64,000 nucleotides of DNA from Patellaria atrata CBS 101060. Its lineage: Eukaryota. Positions 5,755-36,540 of the stretch are shown here, one piece after another; the first letter of the stretch is position 1; each line of letters starts with the position of its first letter. The DNA lies in contig MU006091.1 of assembly GCA_010093705.1 (NCBI GenBank), forward strand, positions 1,550,001 through 1,614,000, in the 5' to 3' direction. Under the pieces are notes generated by a model, which did not search any database, had not been told where the DNA came from, and worked only from the letters and a program-made list of their open reading frames with translations. The position numbers were made by a program, and so were the translations under genes.

Positions 5755-8588
5755 ACCTGACCTCGCCCCTGAGGCCCCATCCCCTGGCCACTCCCCGCCG
5801 TTCCCCTCCGCGGCAACGGCACCCTCGGCGGGACCCCAGACTGCGGCCGCCACCCCATTTCCGGTCCTCCACGACGAAACTGCCGATCCGCGTATCCCGG
5901 ACTGTAGGGGCTAGCAGGTGGAGACGCGGTCGCGGCCGCATACGTCGGCGGGGGGGCATCATCGCGAGCGGGATTGGCGGTAGCGGGGCCAGGGAGGTTT
6001 GAGCGGCGCGGGGGGATGTGGGGACGCGGCTCCTGTCCCTGCGGGCGGGGAGGCGCGGACGAGGCGAGGTATTGCTCGCTCAGGTGGGATTCCTGGCGGC
6101 GACGGGACTCCTGCGCGCGGAGGGCGCGGTCGTCTTCTTCTTCCTGCAGCTGCAGGGCCAGCGCGAGGTCGTGGTCCTCCTGTTCCGTACGGGATTGTTG
6201 TACGGCTGCGGAGGAGGACTGGCGGACGGTGGAGGAGGGGGGCGGGGTGTGCTGAGAGCGGCGGGGAGGGACGGTTTGCCAGCCGGAGTCGTCGTCGAGG
6301 AGGGAGCGGAGGGGAGGGTGACCCTGTGCTGGGGCCGTATCGGCGGGGTCAGCGTGGCTGACGGGGCGGAAGTCGCCGCTGTACAGCTCGCTGCCGCGGC
6401 CGGAAACGTCCACAAGGCTCTCCCAGACGATCTCGTCGTGGGTGCTGTACCCGGCGTCTGTCACAAGGGTGAGCAATTGCTCGGAGCGCGGTTCCTTGTA
6501 CAATGTGGAGAAATGGTCATTTCGGAACAGGATGGCGAATTCACCAGGCTTCAGGTTGGTCGCGATGATATCGAGGCCGTGATCAGATAACTGGGTGGGC
6601 CATAAGGCCAGAAACTGCTTGATAGCAGTGAGGTCTTCGTACAGGGTCTGCTCTTGTGGTGTGAGCCCATTCGCACGCAATTTTCCTTCCAACTCTTCTT
6701 CGCCAAAGAGGATATTCTGTGTATCCTCATATGTTTTTGCGCTTCTTTCAAACGCTTCGTATGCTCGCGACTTCGACTTTGGGAGCCACCCGTGAATTAA
6801 CGGTACGCCAAATGTACTGTAGAGCTTCATCTCGAAAGTCTGTTCGAAACCACCGGGTTTCTGGCGACCGTTGAAGATTGGACGTGTCAGTTTATCGTTG
6901 TCTGTATCCGTACCATCTGATGCTACGAAACGAGGGTTGACGTTCATCCCTGTGTGAAGCGTTATGAGGAACTTGTATAGTTCGCTCATGTCTGGTATAT
7001 CTTCCGTGGTGGTTCCATGCTGTCGAGAGACTAACTCATCGGATACTGCATCTAAAAGAAGGCCAAGACTGACTTGCTCTCGGGTCCTTAATGTGTCGAT
7101 GAGAGCTGTTTCTATACCGACTGGTGTAGTGAGAACTAGGACGTTCACTAATGCCACTAGAGGGCATGGACCGTTCGCACTTTGGGTGAGAATGGGAGAT
7201 GGGCGGATACCTCGTTTTACAGAATCATACCAGCGGATGTGTTTGATTTGATAATGTTCTTTGCGTTGACGTGCAACTCGAGCATTTGGAGTTTCTACCT
7301 CTGAACGAGTAGTTAATGACGCTGCTTCGTTGACATTTAGTTGAGGTCGGGGAGGTTTCGGCGGTGCTTGTTCCTCTTGAGACCTCCTTGGAGGTAGTTT
7401 TGGTGGCTGATCTTCCAGTGAAATGGTGTGAAGCATTGCAGCTGTTCTAGCGGTTTCTTCACCTCTATGCCACTCTTCCTCGGCTCGTCTTTCAGCTTCT
7501 TCAACTTTAGCACGTTCGGCAGCAGCATGAGCTTCTTCAACTTTGCGAACTCGTTCAGAGCGTTCCCACTCGCGTTGCTCATCCCAAGAAAGGGGAGGTG
7601 GAGTGCGTTGATGGTCAGAAGGAAGACCGTGAGCTCTAGAAGTGAACGCGTCTAAAGATGAGACGTCCATGCCTGGATTCCATTCACTTGATGCGTTGGA
7701 GTCATGTCTTTCTTCATGATGTGGGTTATTCTGTTCTGTGGAGGTGGGAATAAGAGGTGGTTGGTTAGAGGAAGAAGTCGGGGCATCAAGATTGCTATTG
7801 TTGAGAGACATATTTGAGGTCTGCTCGACTGGCGTTCTTTCAGAGGGTAATTCTGCCGGATGGGATTGAAAGTTCGAATGAAACTGAGAATGTGACTGTG
7901 ATTGAGGAGCAGACTGATACTGAGAACTGAAATCCGTCCGTTGATGCTGAGGTTGAGAAGCTGTAGGAACGTCTCCCCAGATAGATGCAGAACTTTCGCC
8001 TCCGAAATAAGAAGATTGACCGGTATTTTGCACGCGTAGATAAGGATTGTGCGATCTCAAGGGCACATTAGAACTCTCATGGGGGGATGTGCCAAGGGGT
8101 ACATAGATGCCTCCGTCACTTGCCAGACTCTCCTGTAATCTTTTCAAGGCAGGAGCGCCCCCAGGGGGTCCAACTCTTAGTGCCGACGGTATTTGTTCCG
8201 CCTCTCTCTCTCTCCCCTGTCTAGGTGCCTGTATGCCCCCAACTTTCAGCGGTGCCGGGAGGTCTTTTATATCGCGAGCTAGAGAGGGAGCTTTATGTAG
8301 TTCTTCATCATCCGAATCTTCCCAGTCTGACCCAGAATTTATTGAATGCATGTCGGATTCCGGTCGAGGAGAGTGGAGTTCATTCCGTATGGACGTAAGG
8401 GTAAAATTTGAGCCCGTCGACGTAGTAGGGGGGGGTATGGATTGTGGATTTTGCTCCCCATTGTTTGTATTCGGTATACTCGCTGAAAACATGGTGGGTT
8501 CTGTTGGATATGGTGGATCGTTTGCGGCTCGCGATAGGGGAGGAGGGACAAGGTCACCTGTATCACCACCTGGCCGTCGTATAGTCAT
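5688..8588 (-). CDS. MINDY-family (DUF544/FAM63) deubiquitinase with MIU motif and C-terminal CaaX
   Basis: Catalytic QSANGPCPL, GMNVNPRF, HGWLP and FRNDHFSTL motifs; MIU-like DHDLALALQLQEEE; ends in KCVVM. Single 966-aa ORF. Confidence 0.92.
5721..5755. repeat. CAG/CAA microsatellite encoding polyQ near the MINDY C-terminus
   Basis: A (ctg/ttg)n run on the + strand. Confidence 0.85.
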
Positions 8589-18630: not shown

Positions 18631-20639
18631 CTATATCAACTTCATCCTCTTCGCCACTAGCATACAGACCGTCACGAAGCACAGGATAACTCCCAGTATG
18701 CCGAACCACCAACCAAGCGTATCAGCGTCCTGTCCGGGAACCTTCACGTTCATGCCGAACAATCCGCAAATGAGGTTCAGCGGGACCAGAATCGTGGCGA
18801 TGAGCGTAACCTTGCCCAAAGTCTCATTGATGGCGTTGCCCTGGCTGATATTCTCCACGCTGATCTGGGCAAGGTAGTTACCGTGACTCCTAGACAACAT
18901 CTTTTCGAAATGACCCAGGTTGGACATCATGGTGACGACGTGGTCCTGAATGTCGGAAAGATACAGTCCAACGTCACCGCGGGGTGCGACGGAGTAGTGC
19001 TCGTTACATCGCTTTGCGAAGCCCTTGATGACATCTGCCTTTCCACCTAGAAGGCGGATGAGCGACATTACCTTTTTGCGACTGTGGCCGATAGCCTTGA
19101 GAATTGTGCTCGAATCTTCGATGCGGGCAGTGAAGACCTGGTCTTCGATTGCTTCGGTTTCGTGCTCGACTTGGCGGATCGAGGGGCCGAAGCCGTCGAC
19201 GATATCATCGCTAGGAGATACATTAGCACCGTGTAATGGGTAGTAATTTTGAAGGCGACTTACATAAACGCATAACAGATCCAATCAGAACTGATGGAGA
19301 TGTAATCCCTCAACTTTCCAATCCTCTTGCGGACGTTCGCTGCATGAGGGTTCTGGCAGAAAGTGAACGTAATGATCCCCTCGCGAAAAACAACAGCATA
19401 GATATTGACGGGTTCAAACAATGCATCATTGTCCTTGTCTTTTTCCAGTTGGTAGAAGCTCCGGAAACACATGAAATAGTAATTCTTGAACAGTTCCACC
19501 TTTTCACGAGTTTCCTGTTGCAGAATGTCCTCCAGTGTCAATGGATGCACCCTGAAAGCCTTGCAAATGACCTTGACCTCTTCCTCGGACAGATTCGCAG
19601 CGTCTAACCACCAAGTTGAAGCATCCTCGCCCGTCTCGAATAAATCACGGAAAGACTCCCCAGGCATGAGAAGATCACCAAGTTCTGCAGCATGGATGAC
19701 ATTGTCCATTTCCGAGGAGAAAAAGGTCCACCGAGGAGCGTTATCATTGGTTACACTATCGTGACGCTCGTAAACAGACCTCTTTTCGTCAACATCTGGG
19801 CCTTTCTCCAAATCGGGGTCGAAATCAGACTCCGAAGGCCGCTCAGTAACTATCTTTGGGACATCCTGAGATTGAGGTCGGAGGTCCGGGAAGATCTTTC
19901 TCTTCGAGTCCTTAGAATCGACAGTGTTCCGACGACAGAGCGTGTGCGAAACTGGGGTTCGGTCACGTAGATGGCATTCAGCGACATATTCTTCCAGCTC
20001 CTCATAATCAATGGTGTAGGTCTTGGATGCCTCTTCCGGAGGTGGGAAGCAGACATCCTCTTCTGCAGAGTTATTGCCAGATTCAATTTCCTGTTCTTTG
20101 TTCTCGCTGAACGTCGGACGACGGCGGTGAGTTCCTCCTGAGATGGTCCGGTTCAAGGTCAACTCGACGAAAGAAGGAGCCGTGCTGTTGATGGTACCTG
20201 CCCTTGCTCTTCGACGGGGATCCGCGAATGCATCTACTGAATTGGCTGGAGAAGTAGATCGTGAGGTCCTGGACGACTCTCTGGACCTAGACAAGGGCTC
20301 GATATGTGGGGGACGACCTCTGCGGAAAGTGTTTCTTCTGGGCAAAATAGACCTGCCTTTCTCCGAAGCACCATCATCTTCAATTGCCGTTTCGAAATCC
20401 CTACTGATCATACCAGCACGCTCCAACGCATCATTGACGCCAAGCAAATCCGAATGGGCCTGTAGTTGTGGCTCTGCTATGCTTGCCAAAGTTCCTCTGC
20501 GTGTGTTTGGGTAAGGGGTCCCCATAGCGGAGAGTTCAACACGGGGAAGAGACTCTGGTTGGTTTCGATGATCATCGAGGTCAGGATTTGGTGTGCTGTA
20601 CCTCGTCTGGATATGCTCTGATCTAGGTGTGTCCGTCAT
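18631..20639 (-). CDS. ALR1: CorA-family Mg2+ transporter (Alr1/Alr2-like); one intron near 19212-19263
   Basis: WWLD, VHPLTLEDI, REKVELFKNYYF, SSDWICYA, LYLSDIQDH and two C-terminal transmembrane helices with GLFGMNV (GMN motif). Confidence 0.9.
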
Positions 20640-21926
20640 CTTGCTTGATTTCTTTTTCCGGTCAGAATCTTCCTGTATGGGATCGATATTTGGGTCGGCT
20701 TTCAGTTCTGCTTTTGTCCAGTTGGATTCGCCTCGAAAGGATTTACTAAATCGGCGAGCCGCTACTCGGCGCTCACCGTGCGAGGGAGAGCAACTTGAAC
20801 GGTGGGTCTCGCGTAGGGAATTCCCCTACACTAACCCTTATGATTGACCTTTTGACCAGCACAACCGGTCCAGCGCCAATTAAAGAAGGATTGGAGGTTT
20901 TTGATCGCAGATAGCAATTGATGGTATTTGAAGAATTCTAAAGGTCAGTTATGGAGGCTTCTTGTCGCCTCCACAGACCCAAATCTTTGGGCCGAGAAGA
21001 GGGCGGATGAAGGAGAATCTTAGGTCTTTAGCCCCCGCCAACTTGGTGGTATTGTGATGATGTTCGCCGAAGCGATAAGTTGTTCGTAGGGTATGAAAGC
21101 GAAGGTGGATTGTAGAAGTCTCTGAGTCCTCCGTGTAAGTTTGCTGATTCGATTATTGAAACTTGGTTGTGGGCGCCCGTAGGCCAAAGCTTGCTGAAGG
21201 GTTCTAATCTGGGAACAAGTCAAAATCACAAGTCTTGAACCACAGTTTCAATTGCGTTGGATCGGTTGTATAAGGTATAAGAAGATGTCCTATGGACTAT
21301 GAAAAGAAAGTAAGAGGTTAGGAGGCAAGAAGTAGAAGAATATAAAATAAGCCGCAGAATTTTCGGTAACCGGAGCTAGAACTAGACGAGGGGAGAGATT
21401 CAGGGGGGGGGGGGGGGGTAGTATGACTACCTTTTGTCTTCGCCGCCCAATTATTCTAACGTAAACAAAGCCGTGACTAGGACCCAGACTAATATTGGGT
21501 AATACTAATCAAATTATCTCTTGGTAAAATGGATGAAGCATCAAAGGATAACAATTGAAACGGAAAGGGGGGTATATACAGTATTAAGCAAGAATGCTTA
21601 TCCTCAAGAGATAGCGATATCTTATAAAGTGTTCCCTTGCCCTGTGACATCGTCTGATCCTCTCACAGGCCTTCACCTCATGCTGCCCAAGGTAAATGCT
21701 GTTCCTGCAAGGACACCTTGAGCCACATTGCAGATCCATTTACACACCTCACTGAAAATTAACTAGCCTTCCCGCGTGCGTCGACGTCCTCGGTCCATCG
21801 CGACCGAAATCTTTGGCTTGTTGATGTTCCTCAAATCCCACACTTGGCCTTACCGATATCTGCCCTTTGCCAGGTGTTTCTGATCCTCTTACACGATAAT
21901 CTGAAAGACATACTCAATCCTAAACC

Positions 21927-22471
21927 ATGGCCGACGCTCTTTTAGAACAGATCCGCGATATGCTGGAGGGACAGATTGTAAGCTCGCACCACCCTAGTTC
22001 ATACCTAGCAAAATATTCCGCTGACTGCTTTGTCCGTAGGACTTCGAGGGTCAGCGCCTTGCGGAAATTCTGGCTACGTCGCTTCTTATCGCTTTTGGGG
22101 TGAGTTTATTCATTATCTTCTCCCTTATCATTCTTCCCCTCCTCCGTCATCGTATGCATAAGTACATGCTGCCCAAATTGGTTTCCCGTGAGAAGTTGCG
22201 GGCTAGTATGGCGCAAATGAGAAGACATTTTGCCAGCGTTCATTTAAAGCTAGCATCACTACTGTCTTTGTGATTGCTAACCCATTCCTAGACTCTTGCT
22301 GCCGCTGTTGGCTTCCTTTACGGCGACATCTACCTGACACTCTATGTCTTTGTGGCTGGTACGATCTTCACTGCTCTCGCGGTTATACCTCCTTGGCCAT
22401 TCTACAACAAAAACCCAGCCCAATGGCAAAATCCTCAACGCGGTATATCGGGAGTCACGATCGAAATGTAG
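21927..22471 (+). CDS. SPC1: Signal peptidase complex subunit SPC1/SPC12, three exons
   Basis: MADALLEQIRDMLEGQI / DFEGQRLAEILATSLLIAFG / ...VIPPWPFYNKNP..W. The IDFEGQ and PPWPFYN motifs are diagnostic. Not in the ORF track because of introns. Confidence 0.9.
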
Positions 22472-24715: not shown

Positions 24716-26389
24716 ATGGGTCCAAGAAGAGGCCGAGGTGGACATGTCCATTCTAGAAGCGAAGCCAATGTACCGCAGATAGATCAGGTTCAGAATGATG
24801 CCTCAGCACGTAAGAAACGTGTCGAACAAAACGACTATGATTTCAATACGGCTCTACCACATGCTATTCCCCAAATAGCGAGAGGGGCATCCGGTAACCA
24901 GAAGCGGTACAATAAACAAGTCGGGAATGATAACCAGACAAATTACCTTCAACAATCCGTCTTCGACCAGGAACCCCAGCTAGATACTACTCCAATGAAG
25001 AAGGAACGAAAGCCTTCAGGGCGGAATCAACACAGAACTGGTATTGAATACGCTTACCAACCCCAAGATCAACAGTCACTTCCTCAAACAACACCGTCTA
25101 AGCTGGCTGCGTACGCCGGTCCCACTTTCCACGCTTCTCCTGCTCCTTCTGCCCTCCCCATACCAAAGCTTTTTTCAAAATCCGTACCAAGCACGTCAGA
25201 CAACCCATCTCTACAGTCTCGCTTCGAGCAAGAGACCATCGATATCAAATCAAATGAGTCCGAACTGTCCGTTACCCCAGACTCACTTAACGATGCAATG
25301 GGCATCCGAATCCCGGACCGAGTTCCGGATACAGGCGGGGATCGAGCAGACACACCGTCTCGAGCAGCTAACGATACCTCTTTCGATATAGCCGGTTATT
25401 TCGAGTCTCAACGTAAAGCTAGACTAGAGAATTCGAACTCCTTTACGACTACCGTTCAGAATCAGAATACAGCACAAACCAGACCCGTTCCAGGACCTAT
25501 CCATGACGAATCTCCTTTGGAATTCTTTTTCAAGCGCGATAGAGAAGAGAAAGCCGGTCTGCACCGTACAACTAGTTACAACACACCGTCCTCTAGATCC
25601 ATCTTACCGCCAGCAGCATCTGCGCCTCATCAGACCACCAATAACCCCTTCTCCCACGACCGTTACCCCTCTACCACATCTGCCAAAGAGATGTTCATGC
25701 TCGAACTGGACAGTAATACACCCTCTCACGTCCCGCGTCATGGCTCCCTCCCTGTTAACCGAACCATCACGTCCCCAGCACGCGTCCCGCAAGTCACCCA
25801 AACACCCGATGTAGAGAGAGAAGCCAAAGACCGGAAACTCAAAGACATCCTCCTTAACCTCGCTAACTCGGCATCTGGGAAGCCACTCTCACTATCCCAT
25901 TCACGCACCCCAGATCCATACGCTTCACCACCATTTGTCAAACCAGACGTTCCTATCCACCCACAATCCGGTCCCTCAACCCCAATCCCCCATGGGCATT
26001 CCGCGCACTCAGGTCCATTGCATTACGGAAACAGGAATCTCTCGCCGATGTTTCAGGCCGCGAAGGGGAATAGTAGTTCCAGACGCAGCCCTTCACGACT
26101 AAGCAGGAAAGATTCAGCAGAACCACAGACTCCGAAGGGGAGGGGATACCAGAATCAGATTGGATACCCTTTCCCGAGCTCACCCAGTCCGGTTATCTAC
26201 CCACCGCAAGCGCATCCTTTAACACCCTCGCGGTTTCACCAGGGGTATGGTGCTGGAGAATTACGTGAAGGGATGGAGGGTTATATGAGGCAAGGCGGGA
26301 AGGTAAAGGACACAGGAAAGGGAGACAAGAGTGTCGAGGAGTTGGAGGGGGAGTTACATCGGATGCTCAATATCAAACGAGATGAGTAG
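24716..26389 (+). CDS. Disordered Edc1/PNRC-like mRNA decapping activator candidate
   Basis: YAGPTFHASPAPSALPIP combines the YAGxxF and LPxP motifs. C-terminal helical motif ELEGELHRMLNI. First ATG at 24716. Confidence 0.75.
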   Translation: MGPRRGRGGHVHSRSEANVPQIDQVQNDASARKKRVEQNDYDFNTALPHAIPQIARGASGNQKRYNKQVGNDNQTNYLQQSVFDQEPQLDTTPMKKERKPSGRNQHRTGIEYAYQPQDQQSLPQTTPSKLAAYAGPTFHASPAPSALPIPKLFSKSVPSTSDNPSLQSRFEQETIDIKSNESELSVTPDSLNDAMGIRIPDRVPDTGGDRADTPSRAANDTSFDIAGYFESQRKARLENSNSFTTTVQNQNTAQTRPVPGPIHDESPLEFFFKRDREEKAGLHRTTSYNTPSSRSILPPAASAPHQTTNNPFSHDRYPSTTSAKEMFMLELDSNTPSHVPRHGSLPVNRTITSPARVPQVTQTPDVEREAKDRKLKDILLNLANSASGKPLSLSHSRTPDPYASPPFVKPDVPIHPQSGPSTPIPHGHSAHSGPLHYGNRNLSPMFQAAKGNSSSRRSPSRLSRKDSAEPQTPKGRGYQNQIGYPFPSSPSPVIYPPQAHPLTPSRFHQGYGAGELREGMEGYMRQGGKVKDTGKGDKSVEELEGELHRMLNIKRDE

Positions 26390-27730
26390 GTATTTGCTTA
26401 TGGTTTTCGGTTGGTTGGGTATGGTGGTATTGTTCGCGCGCCTGAGTTGGCGGGTATGCTGGTTTCCTCGATGTACTGGAACAATGGTCTTATGCTTGAT
26501 GGTTGAGAGGGTCTAATGCATGCTGTTATGCCCGTTGATGTTAGTTTCTGACCTAAGTTCTTTATGTATACCATGTTGTTTTTCTCGCTTTCCGTGTTCT
26601 CGTGCGCTCGTGGCGCATTTCAATACTTCCCAACATCATCTTATCTAGTACGGTTCTGAAAGTCTTTAGCTTTATCTATCTATAAATCGATATTTAACCC
26701 AGTTTTATCTAGTTCAATCTCTAGATTTTCCTTTCGCAGCACAACATACGATATACCGTGGCATGCATATTCACCAAATCCTACAAATACACGACAACCC
26801 TCCTATACCCTCATCAGCAGCACAAATTCAGTATTTTATATGATATATATATGTGCCCACTTTAGAGAACACCCATCGTACCATACACTTGCTGTACAAT
26901 TCCACCATCTACTAGGATTAGACCTAAAGTGATTCTGAACTGTCCTCACTCATTGTCATGTCAATGCTCTATTCCTTTACGATATTGTTTAGGGTAGTCT
27001 AGTGTAAACTAATTATTCGAGGTCCTCATACCAAATACCTTTGCTTTAACTCCCGATTGTCACAACCTAGACAACTCGACCACAATATCCGCCTCACAAG
27101 CATTTTGAGGGTATCAGCAACCTTCTGTGTCTCGAGACTGGTCCCCTGGGGGAAATAGTATGGGTGAACGGAGGTCATTCCCGCGTAATGGGACGAGGAC
27201 TCGAGGTATACCACAAAAGGAGGTTTCTTTCCTAACTTAGTTCGAAGCATTGTTCACGCATATTCCACCAAACCGATCTCATTCTATTTAAACTATATAC
27301 ATTATGCCGCAACAACTCCAGCAGTCATAATCCAAACCACCAATTCACGGTACCTGGATCTCGCTACCGTAGTTAGCATTGCCATATCGACTGTCCCGTG
27401 TCCCACCACATTCCCGGATCATGAAAGACATTATAGTTCTAACTGTCACATTAACAGACAATGAGTTTGTATAGTCGAATCCACAATGGCTTCGGACGAG
27501 TACAAAAGCTGTATATTTTCCTCCTTCATCCTTATCATTCACACTAGCATAGCATTCACGAGAGACTACAACACTGTACGCAGGCTGTATAGTACAATCG
27601 CGGTCTACACAAAACTCTACTTCTCTATCCACAAAGCAACAACCTGCTGTACAACACACCTACATCTTTATCTTCATACAACATTCCTAAACCACTCGTA
27701 CAAAGCAGTGTACCAACCCCATTGCCCAGC

Positions 27731-28975
27731 ATGAATTTGAATAGTCCAAAGCAACTCGTAATCAACACAAACGTAGCTCTTTTCAGCATCACAGATTCCG
27801 AGTGTATCTCCCCTCTAACACCCGTTCCCCCTACCCCTCCGCCTCCCAAATATGCCCAAGATCCGGACTACCTTAATCCGGAGCTATCAACAAACCTCAG
27901 CCGAGATTTCGTCAAGGGGTTCAACAAGTCCTGGAGTGGAGGCGAGGGCAGCGCCGAGCTGATATGCCACCGCGCGACCAAGCAACTGTTCATCCTCAAG
28001 ACCCTACACAACAGCAAGCGCGTGAAGAGCGATGAACTGACTGGTGAGCAGAAGGTGTTTGAATTCCTGGGTCCAAGCGAGCATATCGTGCTCTTCGTGA
28101 AGGAATATCTTGATACGAGCACGGCTGTGTGGAATGGTCCTCAACGCCAATTTTTGTACGGGTACTGCGACGGAGGGGACCTGTATGAGTTTAAAGATCG
28201 TTATGAAGAGCATAATATCGCCCTGCCGGAGCTCCTTGTGTGGGACTTGTACAGCCAACTCGCAGGGGGTGTGGCATTCATCCACGGTCAGGGGATCGTA
28301 CACGCCGATATTAAGCCCGCGAATATTTTCTTGGCCTCGGGTCCTGGGCACCCTGTCGCGGGCGTTACTGACAAAGACGACCATCCCAAGGGGAAACCCT
28401 ATCCTCGCGTGAAGTTGGGTGATTTCGGCATGGCGTTCTCGCCGCCTGAAAAGTGCCCCGGATATGGAACCCCGTCCTGGCAGCCGGCCGATCCCGAGAA
28501 ACCTAGATCTATGCCTGCAGATGTATGGGCTGTAGCCGCAGTCGCCCAATTCCTATGTGTCGGCAGGGGACCCCTCACCGGTGGGGCTAAGACTGAAGAT
28601 TTTTCAAGTAACAGCAGCGTGGTGGCCCTGAAGCTGGGCGAGCGTTCGGCGGCCTGCAAGCTAAGGAAGCGTAAATGGTATAGAGAGACACCAAGGAAAG
28701 TGTACAATATCACGGATCCAAGGCAACTAGACAGGCCACTGATTGGGCCCGAAGGCGAGGAATTTGGGTACAGTAGCATGCTGTTCCAGATGGTCCGTAG
28801 GGTACTGCAAGCGACTCCGTCAATGAGGGCCACGGCGAAGGATTTAGTGGTGCAAGTTGAATCGAGGAGACTCGTTGACAGGGTGCGGACTGTGCCAGCT
28901 TGGGCCATGCCCGAGGCACCGAGTCCGCAACCGTGGCAATATGAGGAGTCAGAAGTCCTACCCTACCCAGGGTAG
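27731..28975 (+). CDS. Intronless Ser/Thr protein kinase, non-RD type, divergent
   Basis: Gly loop SGGEGSA, FILK, alphaC Glu, YCDGGDL, HADIKPANIF, KLGDFG, GTPSWQPADPE and DVWAV. Confidence 0.88.
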   Translation: MNLNSPKQLVINTNVALFSITDSECISPLTPVPPTPPPPKYAQDPDYLNPELSTNLSRDFVKGFNKSWSGGEGSAELICHRATKQLFILKTLHNSKRVKSDELTGEQKVFEFLGPSEHIVLFVKEYLDTSTAVWNGPQRQFLYGYCDGGDLYEFKDRYEEHNIALPELLVWDLYSQLAGGVAFIHGQGIVHADIKPANIFLASGPGHPVAGVTDKDDHPKGKPYPRVKLGDFGMAFSPPEKCPGYGTPSWQPADPEKPRSMPADVWAVAAVAQFLCVGRGPLTGGAKTEDFSSNSSVVALKLGERSAACKLRKRKWYRETPRKVYNITDPRQLDRPLIGPEGEEFGYSSMLFQMVRRVLQATPSMRATAKDLVVQVESRRLVDRVRTVPAWAMPEAPSPQPWQYEESEVLPYPG

Positions 28976-29704
28976 GATGTCTCTATTTTGACCACTTGTC
29001 AATTGTTAGATACCTTGTACGATATATGATATTGAAGTTCTGTATAAATGGAGTCGAATAAGTAGAGATTGTATATGGAGGGAGTATCGTGCGTGCGTGA
29101 AGTTAGAGTATATAATTGCGGTGCTGGGAGACTTGGACTAGTACTATAGGTATGATAGCAAAATGAGAACTTTGAATAAGTAACACAACGAAAGAAACGC
29201 AATAGTTGAGAGTGCTCATGCCAGATGAGATGAGACGAAAGATCAGAACGTTCAACGTCCTAGCGGCCCGGCCTGCGGGATGATGAAAGATTAACAGCAG
29301 TATAATGACCATAAAACACAAGAAAAGGAGAAGGGAAAAGTTTCTGACGCCAGAAAACCGAAAGAACGAATGATGGAAAATCCCAAGCCATATCCTTCAT
29401 CCATCGTCCATTCTATATCCGCGACCCATTCGTACAGTCATTAATATCCTCCCCACGCCTGCATAGTTGCACGGCAATATGCATCTTCCAACACTTCTTA
29501 GTTATAGTGTAATGAGATAGAAAGTATTATTCTCCGAATGAAGTTCTGAAGTTTTTCAGCTGGTCAATATAGTGCCAAGAGTTGTCCGCATACAGTTGAT
29601 GTAGGAAACCGTTCCATCGGGAAGCTGAACGGACAGCCACAATCATAGCACATCAAGAATAACGGACAATATGACTATTGTTGTAGTGGTGTGTTCCATC
29701 ATCG

Positions 29705-29866
29705 CTACCGTCCGGATGGTCCTTTGCAGTGGACTGGGCAGATATACCCTACAGTGATAACCCTGTCCACAACAGCATGCCGTCCTAAGGAGGCGCAAGG
29801 GTCTACATTGTGGACGTAGTAGATGCAATCGCAGATGGCATACTTCTCAATAAGTCTGATGCACAT
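29705..29866 (-). CDS. 53-aa Cys/His-rich microprotein MCIRLIEKYAICDCIYYVHNVDPCASLGRHAVVDRVITVGYICPVHCKGPSGR
   Basis: Intact ATG to TAG with A at -3 (caagATG) and a C/A-rich leader. Pattern MC-x6-Y-x2-CxC-x4-H-x2-DPC-x5-H...VGYxCxxH. Below the 60-aa cutoff of the ORF track. Confidence 0.8.
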   Translation of the reverse strand: MCIRLIEKYAICDCIYYVHNVDPCASLGRHAVVDRVITVGYICPVHCKGPSGR

Positions 29867-30075
29867 CTTGCAGGTTCTGGCTTTTGAAACAGTTGTAGTA
29901 GTGTAAGATAGAGGGATTGGATGTTCCGAAGATTGCGTGAGGTAAGTGTTGTGGAATAAACCAGCCCTCTAGGAATTATGTTTTTGGGGAATAGACTGAT
30001 CCGTTTCGGACGTTGTGTGTACGCTGATTCCAACTCAATTGTAACCTTCGCAGCCCATAATCTGTATTGAGGAAA

Positions 30076-30353
30076 TTATGTGTTGTGATATTGAACGAGA
30101 TGGTTCACCTCAACAATCGGGCTCCACGATGAAGTTCCGGTCTTCACTAGGGATATGCTGGTGTAGTCAATGAATAAAAATTGAATGGAACGAAAGGTGA
30201 TGCTGAACGGTTTTCTGGTATGTAAGGGAGATGCCGCAATGATGTTGCTGGAAGTAACAGTAGTGAGAGAGGTATGTGATGATCCAGGAAACGCCCAAGC
30301 AAACCCAAACGAAAGCGTGAAAGAAACTAGAAGAATATGAAAATGCAACTTAT
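30076..30353 (-). pseudogene. Relic of a small secreted protein, start codon apparently lost by a 1-nt deletion
   Basis: cacaAT-AAG TTG CAT would read MKLHFHILLVSFTLSFGFAWAFP, a signal-peptide-like sequence, if one G were restored. Confidence 0.4.
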
Positions 30354-30539
30354 TGTGAAGATGTAAAGAATGGATAATGCACTCATTATATGCAAAGTTT
30401 CCAACATCACACTGGACACACCCTAGACTATCCGTTCGAATCAGCCTAACATTGTCTTGTAGTACAGAAGGAAAGTAATGCTGGATTAGCGTCGATTTTG
30501 GAGGTCAAAACAGGGCAAAGTTGCTCTCGAAATAGTGAG

Positions 30540-33500
30540 GTTATTCACAAATAACAGAAGTAGCAGCCACAGTTCGGAGTTCACGATGAAGTATTTGGAT
30601 GTACCAGAGGCGCAGCTAGGTAACCTGCAGTATATCTTAGTAGTTAAACATCGAACCATGACGTTTCCAGTAAGATTGAAGCGTGGGATGAGAGCGCAGC
30701 GGGAGGCCTATAAGGTAGCGTATCGCGGGAAAAGGCAACACAGGATCCGCGAAACAACACAAGCAACACGGATGCTGCCATGAGTACAGTACCATGCACG
30801 TGGAATTCCAAGGGAACTAACGTCTTTCCCAAGCATTTGATGGAACATGTGAATTAATCGGGCTGTGTCAACGATTCTATTTCTTGTAAGCCAACCGCTT
30901 TATGGGCCCCCAATCAGCTGGACCAGGATGGGAAGTCATACAGTAGTAGTCATACAGTAGTTCATACTCAAAACCATCCTCAATCCCCACAATTCGGGGA
31001 TTATAACGCCTCAAGTAGACTTTCCATATCGAGAAAGGAATAAAGTGCAATTCCAATGCTCGAAAGCGTCGCAATCATGATGACGGAATCCGTCGGCGAC
31101 AAGAGAATCGGATGCAATACGAGCATACTCTGCATTCAAGGGATGTACGTTGAGAGCTGGAGACGGGACAGGATCGAGAGAGTTCTAGTTCTATCAGCTA
31201 CGGAAGATTTGGGCCACGTACAGGACATTTCCCCAGCATAGACTGTTTTATTTTGCAAAGCATACTATAATCTTTGATGAGTCCCTCTCTACTGTAGAGT
31301 TCTACAAAGGGGAGAGGTGTGAGAAAGAGGAGTGAGCAGCAGTGGGGAGAGACCTCGACCGAAAGTTGGCCCGCTCAAGGCGTAAGAAGAAGTATGACAA
31401 GGGTAATCGTCAGCCCTACGGGAAACAGAGCCCCAAAAACTGTCAACTTTAGCAGAAGTTGAAAATTCCAACCAACTACGGAGTTAAGACCCTTTTCGAG
31501 GCATCCAGCAACTAACTTTTATGAGTTAGAAGCGGTTGAAAGGCCACCGCTACAAAGCTGATCATTTTGTATGGCTTGACCATCTGTGCCACACTTCAGG
31601 AACACCATAAGGGCGGTGGTGATACAAATCTCAACTCCAATTGCGACTACAATCCAACAATTTTAGTTTCTTCTCCAATCTACACGTCAACGTTTTGCTT
31701 GTAAAAAGATACTTGTTTATTTGATATTCCTGTTCGCCTTCGTCTAACATGGAAAAGCCTCTAGCACTAGAACTATGCCGAGTTTGCCGAAGAGATTTTT
31801 GTCATTTCTGCAGAAAGTAATTGACCATGTCAAGAAAACCTTTGTATTACCTGCATCGATGACTGGTTGAAGCCTAATAACTAACATTAAATACACTTTG
31901 AAGATCGACGATGAGTAACTCGGCTCCTACGACTTTGTTTGCGTTCGCGCTCACCGTTGATTTTCCAGATCTTCAAGATGATCATCGCTATGATCGACTC
32001 CTTTCTGTGTCACGATGGCTTCGGAGCTTCCAGATCGTCCAAAGAATAACGGCTTTCTTCAATTCAAACCGTTGAAGATGCTCATATTATTCTTCCGCAC
32101 AGAACTTTTCGAAACTGATGCGAGAAGTTGCATAATACGAACTGCTGACTTCGCTCCACCTAAGATCAACGTCACACTGCAGGAATAGATTAAGACCAAG
32201 ATAGTCATGTCGAGCGCTTGTCTGCTCAGGGGACCGCCGATGTTCTAGAATGGCAAGGACAACGACTTCGACTAAACTTTCTTAGGTGATCCATTGAAAT
32301 ACCAGGACACTCATACAGTGCAGACGTTCGGGTCTTGTTCTTGCATGAAATATTCCCTCAATGGACTGGACAAGATCCCTTGAACAAAGATTGCGGTTAC
32401 AATTCACGGTCACAGGCCCCTTTCCCGCCGTTGGCGCGCAAGGCTCATTTTCAGCCTTAAGGGTCTGAATTGAGGCAAGAACGGATTCTATTACTTCGTT
32501 GGCTGAAGTATTCAACCTCCTAGGTGTTACCATGTACACTTCTGGAATTCTTGACTCGTAATTTTACTCCTTTCTGGCAGTTCCGAACTCACTTTTGCCA
32601 CTCAAAACGTCTCTCACCGTATGGGAGTTTAGCTACACAGAATTCACTGGAAGGCATGATATACGGCTACAGGAACAATGCGCTGTCAGATGTTTACACG
32701 AGCATTACTGAATTACCGACTCCCCGTGGAGTAAATGAAGAGGTATACAAATTATGGTTCTAGGTTATTAGTAGGTGGTGTAATATGCGTTCTATACATG
32801 GGCTTATGGGTGTACAGTACAGGAATATTTTTATGCATCCGCTATGGGCTATTGAGGCCTCCGTTTTCGCCTTTCCTCTTTCTTACTCGACGAACAGAAT
32901 GACTCGTTTAAGCATTCCTTTTCAGGATGCTCCAAACTATCTCTCCAATTCATGTGGAATTGTTCCAAGTCAAAGATTGCGCAAATCAAAGAGTAAGCTG
33001 TCCAATAAGTTCTGCCGAGGAGTATCAGCTGGACGAAACCTATCCTAACGCGTCGTTCGTTCTCCAATCACCATCTGTCTCCAACTGAGAATAACTACCC
33101 CAGCCTTGGTTTGTAGCTCGTTGATTGAGGTTGCCGTGCGACCTTGAGGTCCGAGAAAATCACCAACTTTGTGTCTTCAGGCATGAGCCAAGTAGGAACC
33201 GGACGGTGGGAGATCCAATTCGTTCGCCGGCTGATATTGTTCCTGCAAACCGTACCACGATTCCACTCCTTGAGCAACTGCCTTCATCTCCCATGCTGTA
33301 CTCTACTCCATTCAGAACTGCCACTGTCCAACAGACTCTTCTATTCAGCCCCAATCATGCCAGCCCCTTTAGCGCACTCCAATGTATATTTCGCATCTGC
33401 ACCACACCTCATCTTGTCAACTTGTTTGCCTTATTTTAGTATACGTTTGCCTATGCGGAGAGAAATCTGTAGAGTTCCGCGAGCAGGATTTTGACCTTGC

Positions 33501-34185
33501 AAGAAACTTGTACAATCCCAGATCAACCAACCGTATACTACCAAAAGGTATTCATCTGGAAGGGACATACACGGTCACATTTTCACATGCGTAGCGCGTT
33601 CGCATGACAAGAACATTCTATCATTCTCAGAGACACCTCAGGCGATTGTGGCTAATGCGGGTCCCTGCAGATACTTCGAGATACTTTTACGAGGAAAAAG
33701 GTACAAAATCTCCTCAATCATCCATTCGCAGTCCTCCATTTCGACGGCGTTACTTCCACCCATAGACCAGAATAAACCAAGAGCATGAACACCGGGTGCA
33801 CTGTTAAACTCCCACTCCGGCATATTCGCGCCTTCAATCAGCCTAGCCCACGCTTATGCTTATACGAGCACACCTTAGAATCTCACCCCTGAGCTTTACA
33901 ATCGGTTTCCGCCCCAAATCCTCGTTATTTACAAAGCTATCTATCTTCTTCGTTACCTGCTCCACACTCTCCCTCACAACCCCCCCTGAGATACAAGTTC
34001 GAGCTAATAGTCGATCCGGACAGGTGCTCCCCAGCTCGAGCCCAGTTGCCATGGTAGGGTCAAACTCGGCCGTTACATTGAGATACGCTTCACCCTCGCT
34101 CGGTTTAAAATTCCGGTCGGAATCCGAAGTTTCGCGATTGTCTTCACCGGAGACTTTGACTAGACATTGTTTTGCGCAGACATGG
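30540..34185 (-). pseudogene. Heavily decayed large hypothetical-protein gene
   Basis: Collinear fragments: LIWDCTSFLQGQ (about 33500), KLPYGERRFEWQ followed by a GTGAGT donor (about 32590), RALELHFIPFSIW and DGFEYE (about 31000), ARLIHMFH (about 30850) and a hydrophobic tail. Many stops and frameshifts. Confidence 0.45.
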
Positions 34186-35386
34186 TTGACTCATTGCTTC
34201 GATGTAGTACAAACATCATATCGACTATTCATTCAGCTCACTTTGATAATCAATACAAGAAAGCATCAACAAACAACCTACAGATCAGCGACACCATTCC
34301 CTCAAAACGCGCTGAAAGCACGCAGACCACGTCAAAGCAGACAGATAACTCTCGAGCATTCATGTTGCGCAACACCAGATCAGCTTCAGAAGACCACACA
34401 TCCTCATCCCCTCAGCTATCAGTATAATGGGCAACATACTACCCTTTAGGTACTTTGCTTTCCGTAATCGATACGAACAAGCAATATCCCCTTTCATCTA
34501 ACAACGCGCAGATCCCCCACGGAACTCATCGAATTTCACACCACAAACATCATTTAACACATTTTGCATATAAATCACGCTGTACCTGAAATCAGATATG
34601 ATCTCTTACTCAATTCAAGTAATACTCTATTGCTGATGTTTGGTTCTGAGAGGTCTACTAAGATTTATACCGCAAATATCGTCCCCCGCGTCCCTGTTTG
34701 GTCCTGAAAGGACTATTAAGATTGATACCGCATATTTGGACCCCGCCTCTCGAACATCTATCCTGTGCGATATATTTAGAATATCCGGTGCTCCTCTCTG
34801 ATAGATATATGTCACATTCAGAATCGTATAGAATTCAGGATAGACCCAACCGCTGTAGAAGGTGATAAGGGGATTTACCATAGAATAGCAATGGTTGTAG
34901 ATCTGATCATCGTTATCTCCTGAGCAGTGTAGGAAAGCAATAAGCACAAGAGAAACAAACTACCTGGTAGGGACGCTGGAAGGTGAAAAAGGTGAAAGTA
35001 GGTAAGCGGGCTGCAAGCCAAAGCATACGAACAGTACAGCGTTGAGGTTATGAGAATGGGGTTCTATGAATAGAAAGATCCACTTGGATAGAGCTGATAT
35101 TGAAGGGCTGCGCCCAGATCATTCATCACATAGGAAACAAGTTCAACATAGTATTTGATTCGAGTTGATCTATTAATCTCATCCGCAATTTCTATATCTC
35201 GCAGTATGAGAATCCATGCATTCACGCCATGACCTGCCTCCTACTGCCGATCTAATAGCCCAGACGCCACGCAATGCAAAATCCCACCAACACCTCTTTG
35301 CCCGCCCGAAGCCTCACAATGCATCAGCACCGTCTCTAGTAGAGAAGCTATAGACAAGTAAGCATCAGACCGAGAAGTGAGAGCGC

Positions 35387-36540
35387 TCATTTCCCATCCT
35401 TCCTCTTCCTCAGCGTGTTCCCCTGGCCTTGGAAATGGACTTTCTCCTCACTCTCCGCAGCCTCCCCTTTCTTCCTGAGCGGGGTGATCTCGTAGCCCAA
35501 AAACAGCTTCCCAGGTGGCAATCTCAGGGGCTGCGGTCCTGCTCTCCGCACCTGCGTCCTTATCTGCTCTGATGGCGAATTGGTAGACTGTCCTGCCACT
35601 GGTGTTGAGGCCTGGGGTGTCGATGTCTTGGACCCCTTTTTGTTCAACTTGTGACCCGCGGACAGGAAATGGGAGGAGACTGCCTGGGCGCCGGAACCGG
35701 GGGCTGTAGAGTTGGGAGCGATGGCAGCATAGTTGATAGCCGCGGCCATTGTTCCATGTGGGTGCATCATTCCGGACTGTCCCGCTAAACCACCCGTCGC
35801 GGAGCGCGGTGTGCTTGTCCCTGAGGCCGCTTTTCTGCGCGCCACTTCTTCGTCATAACCGACGGGGGCCTCGAAGTCGACGCTCAGATCGGTCTCGATG
35901 GTACAGATCGCGTTAGCCGGGTTTGCAGGTTTTACATCCTTGACTGCGACGGAGTAGGTGTTGTCGTTGTAGGCGAAGGTGAAGATATCGCCGACGGTAA
36001 GGCAGGAAAAGTTGCGGAACGCAGTCTCGAGGACGGCTTTCGGATCACTGATCTCCAAAAAACTTGTATCTTGCGGTTGAAGCTTGATGAAACTACCGAG
36101 TGGTAGGTCCGTCGAGAGAATCTGGACTAGATCTCCTGGCTCTAGGCCTAGCGTCTGCATGAGCCAGTATGGGAGGTATATCTTGCCCTCTTCCGCGATG
36201 AATTCTAGCACCCCCGCGTGCGTTGTTTTCGACGCTTTGCCGTTGCGGAGTTCGAATAGCATGGGATAGGTTATGTGGAGCCGGGTTAGTTTGTCCAGGG
36301 CGGAGGGTGGCATGAATACTTTGCCGCCGTGGTTTGCTGAGGGGCGGTCGGGACCGGGGAGCATGGCGATGGGATAGCAGCGGAGGTACTCGTCGAAGCG
36401 ACGAGGGGGACGGGACGAGCGGTGCATCATACTCCGATAGTGGTCATCGTCGTCGTAGTAATTTGCATTGTAAGAGAACTGAGGAGGGTTAGGGTAGAAA
36501 GACAGGGTGGGAAGGAGGGAATTGTGATCGGACTTACCAT
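35387..36540 (-). CDS. UFD1: Ubiquitin fusion degradation protein 1 (Cdc48 cofactor); first coding exon is the ATG only
   Basis: GGKVFMPPSALDKL, YPMLFEL, THAGVLEFIAEEG, ISDPKAVLE, DFEAPVGY, GKLFLGY and the SHP-like FQGQGNTL. ATG|gtaagt at 36540; the exon resumes with FSYNANYY. Confidence 0.96.

Follow-up and report, generated by a model that had tools for sequence, protein, structure and literature searches.

The window, a 64,000-nucleotide stretch of Patellaria atrata CBS 101060 DNA, carries a small intact gene, P0001, on its minus strand. The features considered here, including a paralog elsewhere in the same genome, are as follows.

18631..20825 (minus strand): CorA-family transporter gene, 9 kb downstream of P0001, with homologs at five related loci
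22247..22438 (plus strand): SPC12 exon, recognised by Pfam; also near CorA in L020
27731..28975 (plus strand): protein kinase gene, single-frame, 414 aa, intact and convergent with P0001; open reading frame and Pfam
28976..29704 (no strand): downstream spacer of 0.7 kb between P0001 and the kinase gene convergent with it, in which no remnant was detected
29705..29866 (minus strand): P0001, gene for a 53-aa Cys/His microprotein, a core-only paralog; open reading frame, homology, fold model and dN/dS
29867..35386 (no strand): upstream spacer of 5.5 kb from P0001 to UFD1; single-copy, with no RIP, Pfam, Rfam or tRNA match
35387..36430 (minus strand): UFD1, the same-strand upstream neighbour; conserved in L013, L021 and L031
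37207..38514 (plus strand): GYF-domain gene, oriented divergently to UFD1, as it is in L013, L021 and L031
43363..43905 (plus strand): exons of a TruB/Cbf5-type pseudouridine synthase, recognised by Pfam; also in L026
G000:C7:676258-676482 (minus strand, contig C7): tailed paralog P0002, 75 aa, with a DSGxxS-type motif; genome search

The P0001 frame is intact from ATG to TAG (29866 to 29705, 53 codons), and its translation contains six cysteines and three histidines, whereas the plus strand over the same positions is interrupted by an internal stop. An A occupies position −3. The intact Cys/His-rich frame and the good start context named in the original prediction were thus confirmed upon inspection, with the frame placed on the minus strand. 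The 34 codons 5′ of the ATG stay open without a further Met. By inspection, the conserved core begins at Met1 and the N-terminus lacks a hydrophobic stretch, with charges at positions 4, 7 and 8, including Glu7 and Lys8. The locus was covered by contigs from two public runs of one sample with zero differing letters; these runs are probably the DNA behind the assembly itself, so they do not provide independent confirmation.

When the 6.4-kb region was resampled by dinucleotides, 300/300 copies contained an open reading frame of at least 53 aa, and 14/300 contained one of 40–70 aa with at least 6 Cys and at least 3 His. By itself, a Cys/His-rich short frame is weak evidence for a gene, and P0001 is regarded as real because of its homology and the selection acting on it rather than the frame alone. 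A simple codon-usage score of the frame was negative (−13 over 53 codons), probably reflecting a make-up rich in Cys, Tyr, Ile and Val. The sequence TATAWA was not found within 700 bases upstream of P0001; it was present in 13 of the 19 related loci examined. The promoter and 5′ UTR presumably lie within 29867..35386.

A Cys/His module in filamentous fungi

A word-seeded single-sequence search recovered P0001 alone (1/1 candidate). The apparent lack of relatives was a limit of sensitivity and was overturned by phmmer and profile searches. Exhaustive phmmer searching identified 350 clusters at E ≤ 0.001 and 16 at 1e-10 (150 of the 350 clusters listed); the best match, P0003 from Aplosporella (KAF2142734.1), was 67% identical over 49 aa. 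A profile search matched 268 of 1520 candidates of 26–294 aa; of 8000 longer candidates, 44 matched. Among the named members are proteins from Aspergillus, Penicillium, Pyrenophora, Monilinia, Hypoxylon, Fusarium, Ascobolus and Pyronema, with P0124 (RPA71758.1, Ascobolus) and P0146 (XP_025382598.1, Aspergillus) as further database examples. Because the named members fall across what we take to be the Eurotio-, Dothideo-, Leotio-, Sordario- and Pezizomycetes, the family is Pezizomycotina-wide. The Pezizomycotina Cys/His family invoked in the original prediction was therefore borne out, with 350 clusters at E ≤ 0.001 and the expected spacing conserved in an alignment of homologs.

The family is already in databases as gene models; no family definition was found. 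The names listed for short members are all hypothetical, unnamed or uncharacterised, apart from P0008, a gene model with an upstream extension that was automatically labelled ‘Secreted protein’; none of the members seen is annotated with a function. Pfam returned no family for P0001 at E ≤ 1, nor did any family cover the core of 150 homologs at E ≤ 0.01, and the family profile matched no PDB sequence at E ≤ 10. The atlas clusters nearest P0001 (0.89, a lead only) and P0002 (0.96) are unnamed, from Ascomycota and devoid of Pfam domains. Among open-access papers (main text), we found none on the family or on its split into core-only, tailed and fused forms.

The core comprises 46–48 residues. 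Eight candidate ligands are conserved in P0001, namely five cysteines and three histidines (C2, C12, C14, H19, C24, H30, C43 and H46), with the spacing C-x9-C-x-C-x4-H-x4-C-x5/7-H-x12-C-x2-H; the sixth cysteine, C47, is not conserved and occurs in 3/280 members. M1, E7, Y16, D22, V39 and G40 are conserved non-ligands. In a 70-sequence alignment, E7, C12, C14, C24, H30, G40 and C43 were invariant, and M1, C2, Y16, H19, D22, V39 and H46 were at least 90% conserved. A pattern fixing the cysteines, H30, G40 and H46 was passed by 277 of 294 proteins; among these, conservation of the columns that the pattern leaves free was nearly complete (E7 in 277, H19 in 275, M1 in 274, V39 in 274, Y16 in 270 and D22 in 266).

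Codon-level comparison revealed purifying selection, with a median dN/dS of 0.068 and a maximum of 0.29 over the 31 unsaturated of 171 pairs, which are not independent of one another. The set consisted of the window copy and 18 of 32 metagenome loci, each with a gap-free 46-residue core (L017, L020, L023, L027–L030 and L032–L038 were left out). Identity by codon position was 0.79/0.86/0.44. The homolog search and dN/dS analysis proposed with the original prediction thus yielded homologs with conserved Cys/His spacing under clear constraint. Comparisons of the window copy with its relatives gave pS of 0.69–0.92 and pN of 0.19–0.30, dS being saturated in 17/18 of them. The window copy is more diverged (branch 0.72 versus 0.10 for its sister P0003, on a poorly resolved core tree with 10/264 branches well supported) and has kept every conserved residue. 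Because of this divergence, constraint in this lineage may be relaxed.

Upstream extensions of at least 30 residues were annotated in 102 of the 280 retrieved gene models. As 94 of the 102 share no relative among the others, we take Met-Cys as the true start; in 55 of the 61 long forms, the Met of the module is also the first residue of the protein. At L035–L038, the match starts at residue 14 behind an intron-like stretch, and an intron appears to lie inside the core in some lineages. The whole contig of L015 mirrors itself, so that each end carries the gene; this is probably an artefact of assembly or amplification.

An AlphaFold model of P0001, built from a 70-row alignment (pLDDT 87.6), contains strands at residues 3–9, 15–22 and 33–40 and a helix at 44–47. 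In a fusion protein, the module was predicted as a separate fold (pLDDT 82–89) followed by a disordered linker. From the strand order in the model, C12 and C14, in the first hairpin turn, should meet C43 and H46, and C2 should meet C24 and H30 with H19 or D22. It is plausible from the model that the eight conserved Cys/His residues hold two structural zinc ions, one at each end of the three-stranded sheet: proposed site A would comprise C12, C14, C43 and H46, and proposed site B would comprise C2, C24 and H30 with H19 or D22. This putative pairing was derived from conservation and the order of the strands, together with weak covariation (top score 0.19, ~119 effective sequences).

Foldseek returned no PDB match to the 53-aa model at E ≤ 0.001, the size of the model being near the limit of such searches, and viral models gave none at the same threshold. 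The VIA best match had a Z of 2.4 and an rmsd of 3.5 over 40 aligned residues. PerR was a weak match in each of the two PDB searches (Z 2.3), and no reliance was placed on it. Blank fold searches do not show a new fold.

Binuclear zinc fingers of the RING, LIM, B-box and treble-clef types are protein-interaction modules. The family resembles them in having eight Cys/His candidate ligands in ~50 residues, in a predicted arrangement of β-strands ending in a C-x2-H knuckle plus a short helix, and in being used both alone and as a domain; it differs from them in a ligand spacing that matches no Pfam model. Metallothioneins are Cys-dominated, with scant regular secondary structure and few aromatic residues. 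Unlike these, the family has three predicted β-strands and a helix, together with conserved Tyr, His, Glu and Asp.

Tailed and fused forms

The 277 pattern-passing proteins divide into 22 core-only and 196 tailed members and 59 that continue for at least 150 residues. The motif DSG[YF]xS, at a median of 16 residues past the core, was present in 104/196 tailed members versus 0.16 in shuffled tails; it occurred in 0/22 core-only members and is absent from P0001. Arg/Ser-rich tails ending in Arg or Arg-Lys were found in 106/196 tailed members. The P. atrata genome contains two family matches, the window core-only gene and the tailed P0002, which are about 45% identical. An Ascobolus core-only protein is 57% identical to the window copy versus 40% to the tailed copy; being closer to the former, it suggests an old duplication.

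The betaTrCP/Slimb/FWD-1 phosphodegron consensus is DpSGXXpS, as given in PMC13097077, and the Neurospora homolog of Slimb is FWD-1 according to PMC10931572. The DSG[YF]xS motif of the tailed paralog fits this consensus; in contrast to betaTrCP substrates, the window gene and all 22 core-only members lack it. A DSGxxS match in sequence does not alone show a working degron. A subfamily at L017, L023, L028–L030 and L034 carries another conserved tail motif, of the GI/VLPDS type, rather than a full DSGxxS, which hints that some lineages have a third or further type of paralog.

For P0002, L003 and L004, the neighbours are an ADIP-domain gene, a DUF155 gene and a bHLH gene. A further neighbour has a weak AMPK glycogen-binding match and is presumably EsdC-like. 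On either side of P0002, ~3 kb or more is free of recognisable genes.

In other fungi, 61 of the 280 retrieved members are in-frame N-terminal fusions to unrelated large proteins; some of these are probably gene-model artefacts arising from merged models or read-through. Grouping the long forms on their C-terminal parts gave 12 sets (33, 11, 4, 3, 2 and 2 members and six singles). Long forms with a Pfam domain comprise, among others, a kinase, an aspartyl protease, a C2H2 protein and an alpha/beta hydrolase. The commonest partner (33/61) is an all-helical domain of ~150 residues that has no Pfam match and sits behind an acidic Ser-rich linker; P0071, P0082, P0122, P0262, P0269 and their relatives carry it. 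This domain is itself an undescribed family. That of P0269 gave no Foldseek match at E ≤ 0.001 and a best Z of 5.7 (rmsd 3.8, 87 aligned), ordinary among helical bundles.

The largest fusion group is likely genuine. Many of its rows end in apparent splice-donor read-through and would therefore be intron-blind calls, from which we infer a single open frame running from the module into the helical domain. On the core tree, the fused label required 10 changes versus 19.6 when shuffled, and well-supported branches force 2; fusions have likely originated repeatedly. Searching the P. atrata genome with two fusion proteins matched the two small genes alone and no large domain. The original prediction had linked the family to large hypothetical genes, and this link holds for N-terminal fusions elsewhere but fails for a neighbour here.

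Chromosomal setting of P0001

We compared 32 related loci, many on short contigs. A neighbour in common with the window was present at 9/18 core-only loci versus 0/14 other loci; the nine syntenic loci amount to about four independent lineages, and the core-only genes at the 18 loci encode 47–49 aa. At three of them (L013, L021 and L031), UFD1 lies on the same strand 3.5–3.7 kb upstream, compared with 5.5 kb in the window, with the GYF gene, which we take to be LIN1-like, beyond. At five others (L011, L014, L018, L020 and L022), a CorA homolog lies ~1 kb downstream in convergent orientation, accompanied by SPC12 in L020, and at L026, the TruB/Cbf5 gene lies 1.2 kb downstream on the strand of the small gene. 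Eight of the other nine core-only loci are on 1–4 kb contigs, and the ninth, L027, has no start codon. The L027 copy (7998-8141) is diverged and lies directly 3′ of a gene with PigL_N and ubiquitin-like domains; it may be displaced or spliced.

The kinase gene is nearest to P0001 in the window; of the 32 related loci, none was seen with it as a neighbour. It was considered as a specific relative of the kinase fused in P0063 and rejected (23% over 149 aa). No close full-length paralog of the window kinase was seen in this genome; at G000:C7:387253-387456, 68 residues that share 71% identity with positions 277–344 of the kinase are possibly a fragment of a duplicate. At 24716-26389 (plus strand) lies a 557-aa gene with a PNRC motif, unrelated to the microprotein finding.

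The original prediction had placed P0001 in decayed DNA full of stops. Instead, stop density in the flanks was ordinary (4.4–4.9 per 100 codons versus 4.8–5.3 in three gene-poor stretches elsewhere in the window), their dinucleotide indices were like those of other gene-poor parts, and no RIP signature was found, the composite RIP index being negative (−0.34 to −0.42). With stops read through, the 12 frames of the flanks gave no Pfam match at E ≤ 1; as a positive control, the same scan recovered the exons of SPC12 and TruB at other positions in the window (2/9 frames). Rfam and tRNA scans of the spacer gave no match, and the 6.4-kb region is single-copy in the genome.

Survival beside a dead partner had also been proposed. 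No remnant was detected in the flanks by Pfam frames, homolog C-termini or related-locus segments, and the nearest gene is intact. The C-terminal parts of 76 homologs gave no credible match to 26390-35386 beyond P0001 (one at E 0.027), and among 2909 translated segments of related loci, a single match to the flanks at E 8e-4 did not hold up. No conserved non-coding match between the window flanks and related loci was found (best E 0.13). Codon scores in the flanks peaked at 8.1 and 6.1 bits versus 4.1 in controls and 30 for the kinase. Three protein-looking frames in the upstream spacer, all on the minus strand (33846-34190, 33641-33853 and 32285-32563), have no paralog in this genome. Two adjoining open frames of 71 and 115 codons at 33638-34190 (minus strand) are faintly protein-like, with no Pfam match and no clear codon signal; this is the sole place where a very old remnant might hide. 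The notion of a conserved gene-free gap was dropped, as gene-like frames lie between UFD1 and the small gene in L013 and L031. No toxin-like partner, for which a consistent neighbour had been the proposed check, recurs in the 32 loci, the common neighbours being housekeeping genes. The DNA around P0001 is ordinary spacer, and the chromosomal position of the gene is an old one.

Proposed role and alternatives

From the fold model and conservation, P0001 is probably an old intracellular microprotein, a single zinc-stabilised binding module for a macromolecular partner. The invariant non-ligands E7, Y16, D22, V39 and G40 would provide the contact surface for a conserved partner, which is most likely a protein. 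We favour such a docking surface over metal storage and the other roles considered below because of the slow evolution, the invariant non-ligands, the defined fold and the N-terminal reuse of the module. More weakly, the tailed paralog may be short-lived, its control depending on the DSGxxS motif, and the window core-only form may be a degron-less version engaging the same or a related partner; to go from a degron-like motif in one paralog to a ‘stable competitor’ is speculation. Lineage-specific large proteins may have acquired the module N-terminally to serve as a recruitment tag, a placement that could also simply result from capture of a promoter and first exon. Taken to its full extent, the model would describe a regulatory pair on an unsolved zinc fold, in which a betaTrCP-degron form and an ancient degron-less paralog tune one conserved target, and unrelated fast-evolving proteins (helical-domain, kinase, protease) repeatedly captured the module N-terminally as a recruitment tag or decoy. 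We consider this elaborate version unlikely, if conceivable.

Several other functions might be drawn from the same module. Eight conserved Cys/His residues within 46 residues could suit a metallothionein-like buffer or chaperone that binds and hands over Zn or Cu, and a CorA-family cation transporter lies ~1 kb off in 5/32 loci and 9 kb off in the window. CorA was, however, not seen within 5.5–8 kb downstream in L013, L021 and L031, invariant non-ligands and a defined β-sheet are not metallothionein features, and fusions to kinase, protease and helical domains would be left unexplained, so that a buffering role is improbable. We give a slightly lower standing to a redox or N-terminal-Cys sensor, in which Met removal would expose Cys2 and oxidation or zinc release would act as the switch: the Met-Cys start in 274/277 members and the position of the module at the very start of 55/61 long forms agree with it, yet a structural-ligand Cys2 and promoter capture account for the same facts. 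An equally small chance attaches to a nucleic-acid-binding zinc finger, or a small subunit of a ribonucleoprotein or chromatin complex. The small size, slow evolution and conserved aromatic residues would fit, as would the Arg/Ser-rich tails ending in Arg or Arg-Lys (106/196 tailed members), but the most conserved charged non-ligands, E7 and D22, are acidic.

Fungal two-gene poison–antidote and meiotic-drive modules exist, and P0001 recalls them in being a small gene whose family is tied elsewhere to lineage-specific large proteins; it is unlike them in that no partner was found here, the neighbourhood is stable and housekeeping, and purifying selection is strong. An antidote or regulator of a killer module with a decayed adjacent partner is very improbable. 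The fusions to fast-evolving large proteins do suggest that the module is able to travel with such genes, and a remnant might be too decayed for the searches used; against this stand the flanks with no remnant, the single-copy region with no RIP, the conserved housekeeping neighbourhood and the dN/dS of 0.07, by which this reading is largely refuted. Least probable of all is a conserved uORF peptide that affects how a downstream gene is translated: P0001 is short and conserved with its ATG in good context, and L026 has a same-strand gene 1.2 kb downstream, but the next gene is on the opposite strand in the window, as is CorA in five loci, the downstream gene varies between loci, and the fold is predicted to be defined. 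The binding-module reading of P0001 is thus the one we retain.

P0001 does not constitute a new system of the selfish or killer type. Owing to their small size, genes of this family are easily missed or mis-started in annotation. A 46-residue module that extends from Pezizomycetes to Aspergillus and Penicillium and has no Pfam entry represents overlooked core biology of filamentous fungi.
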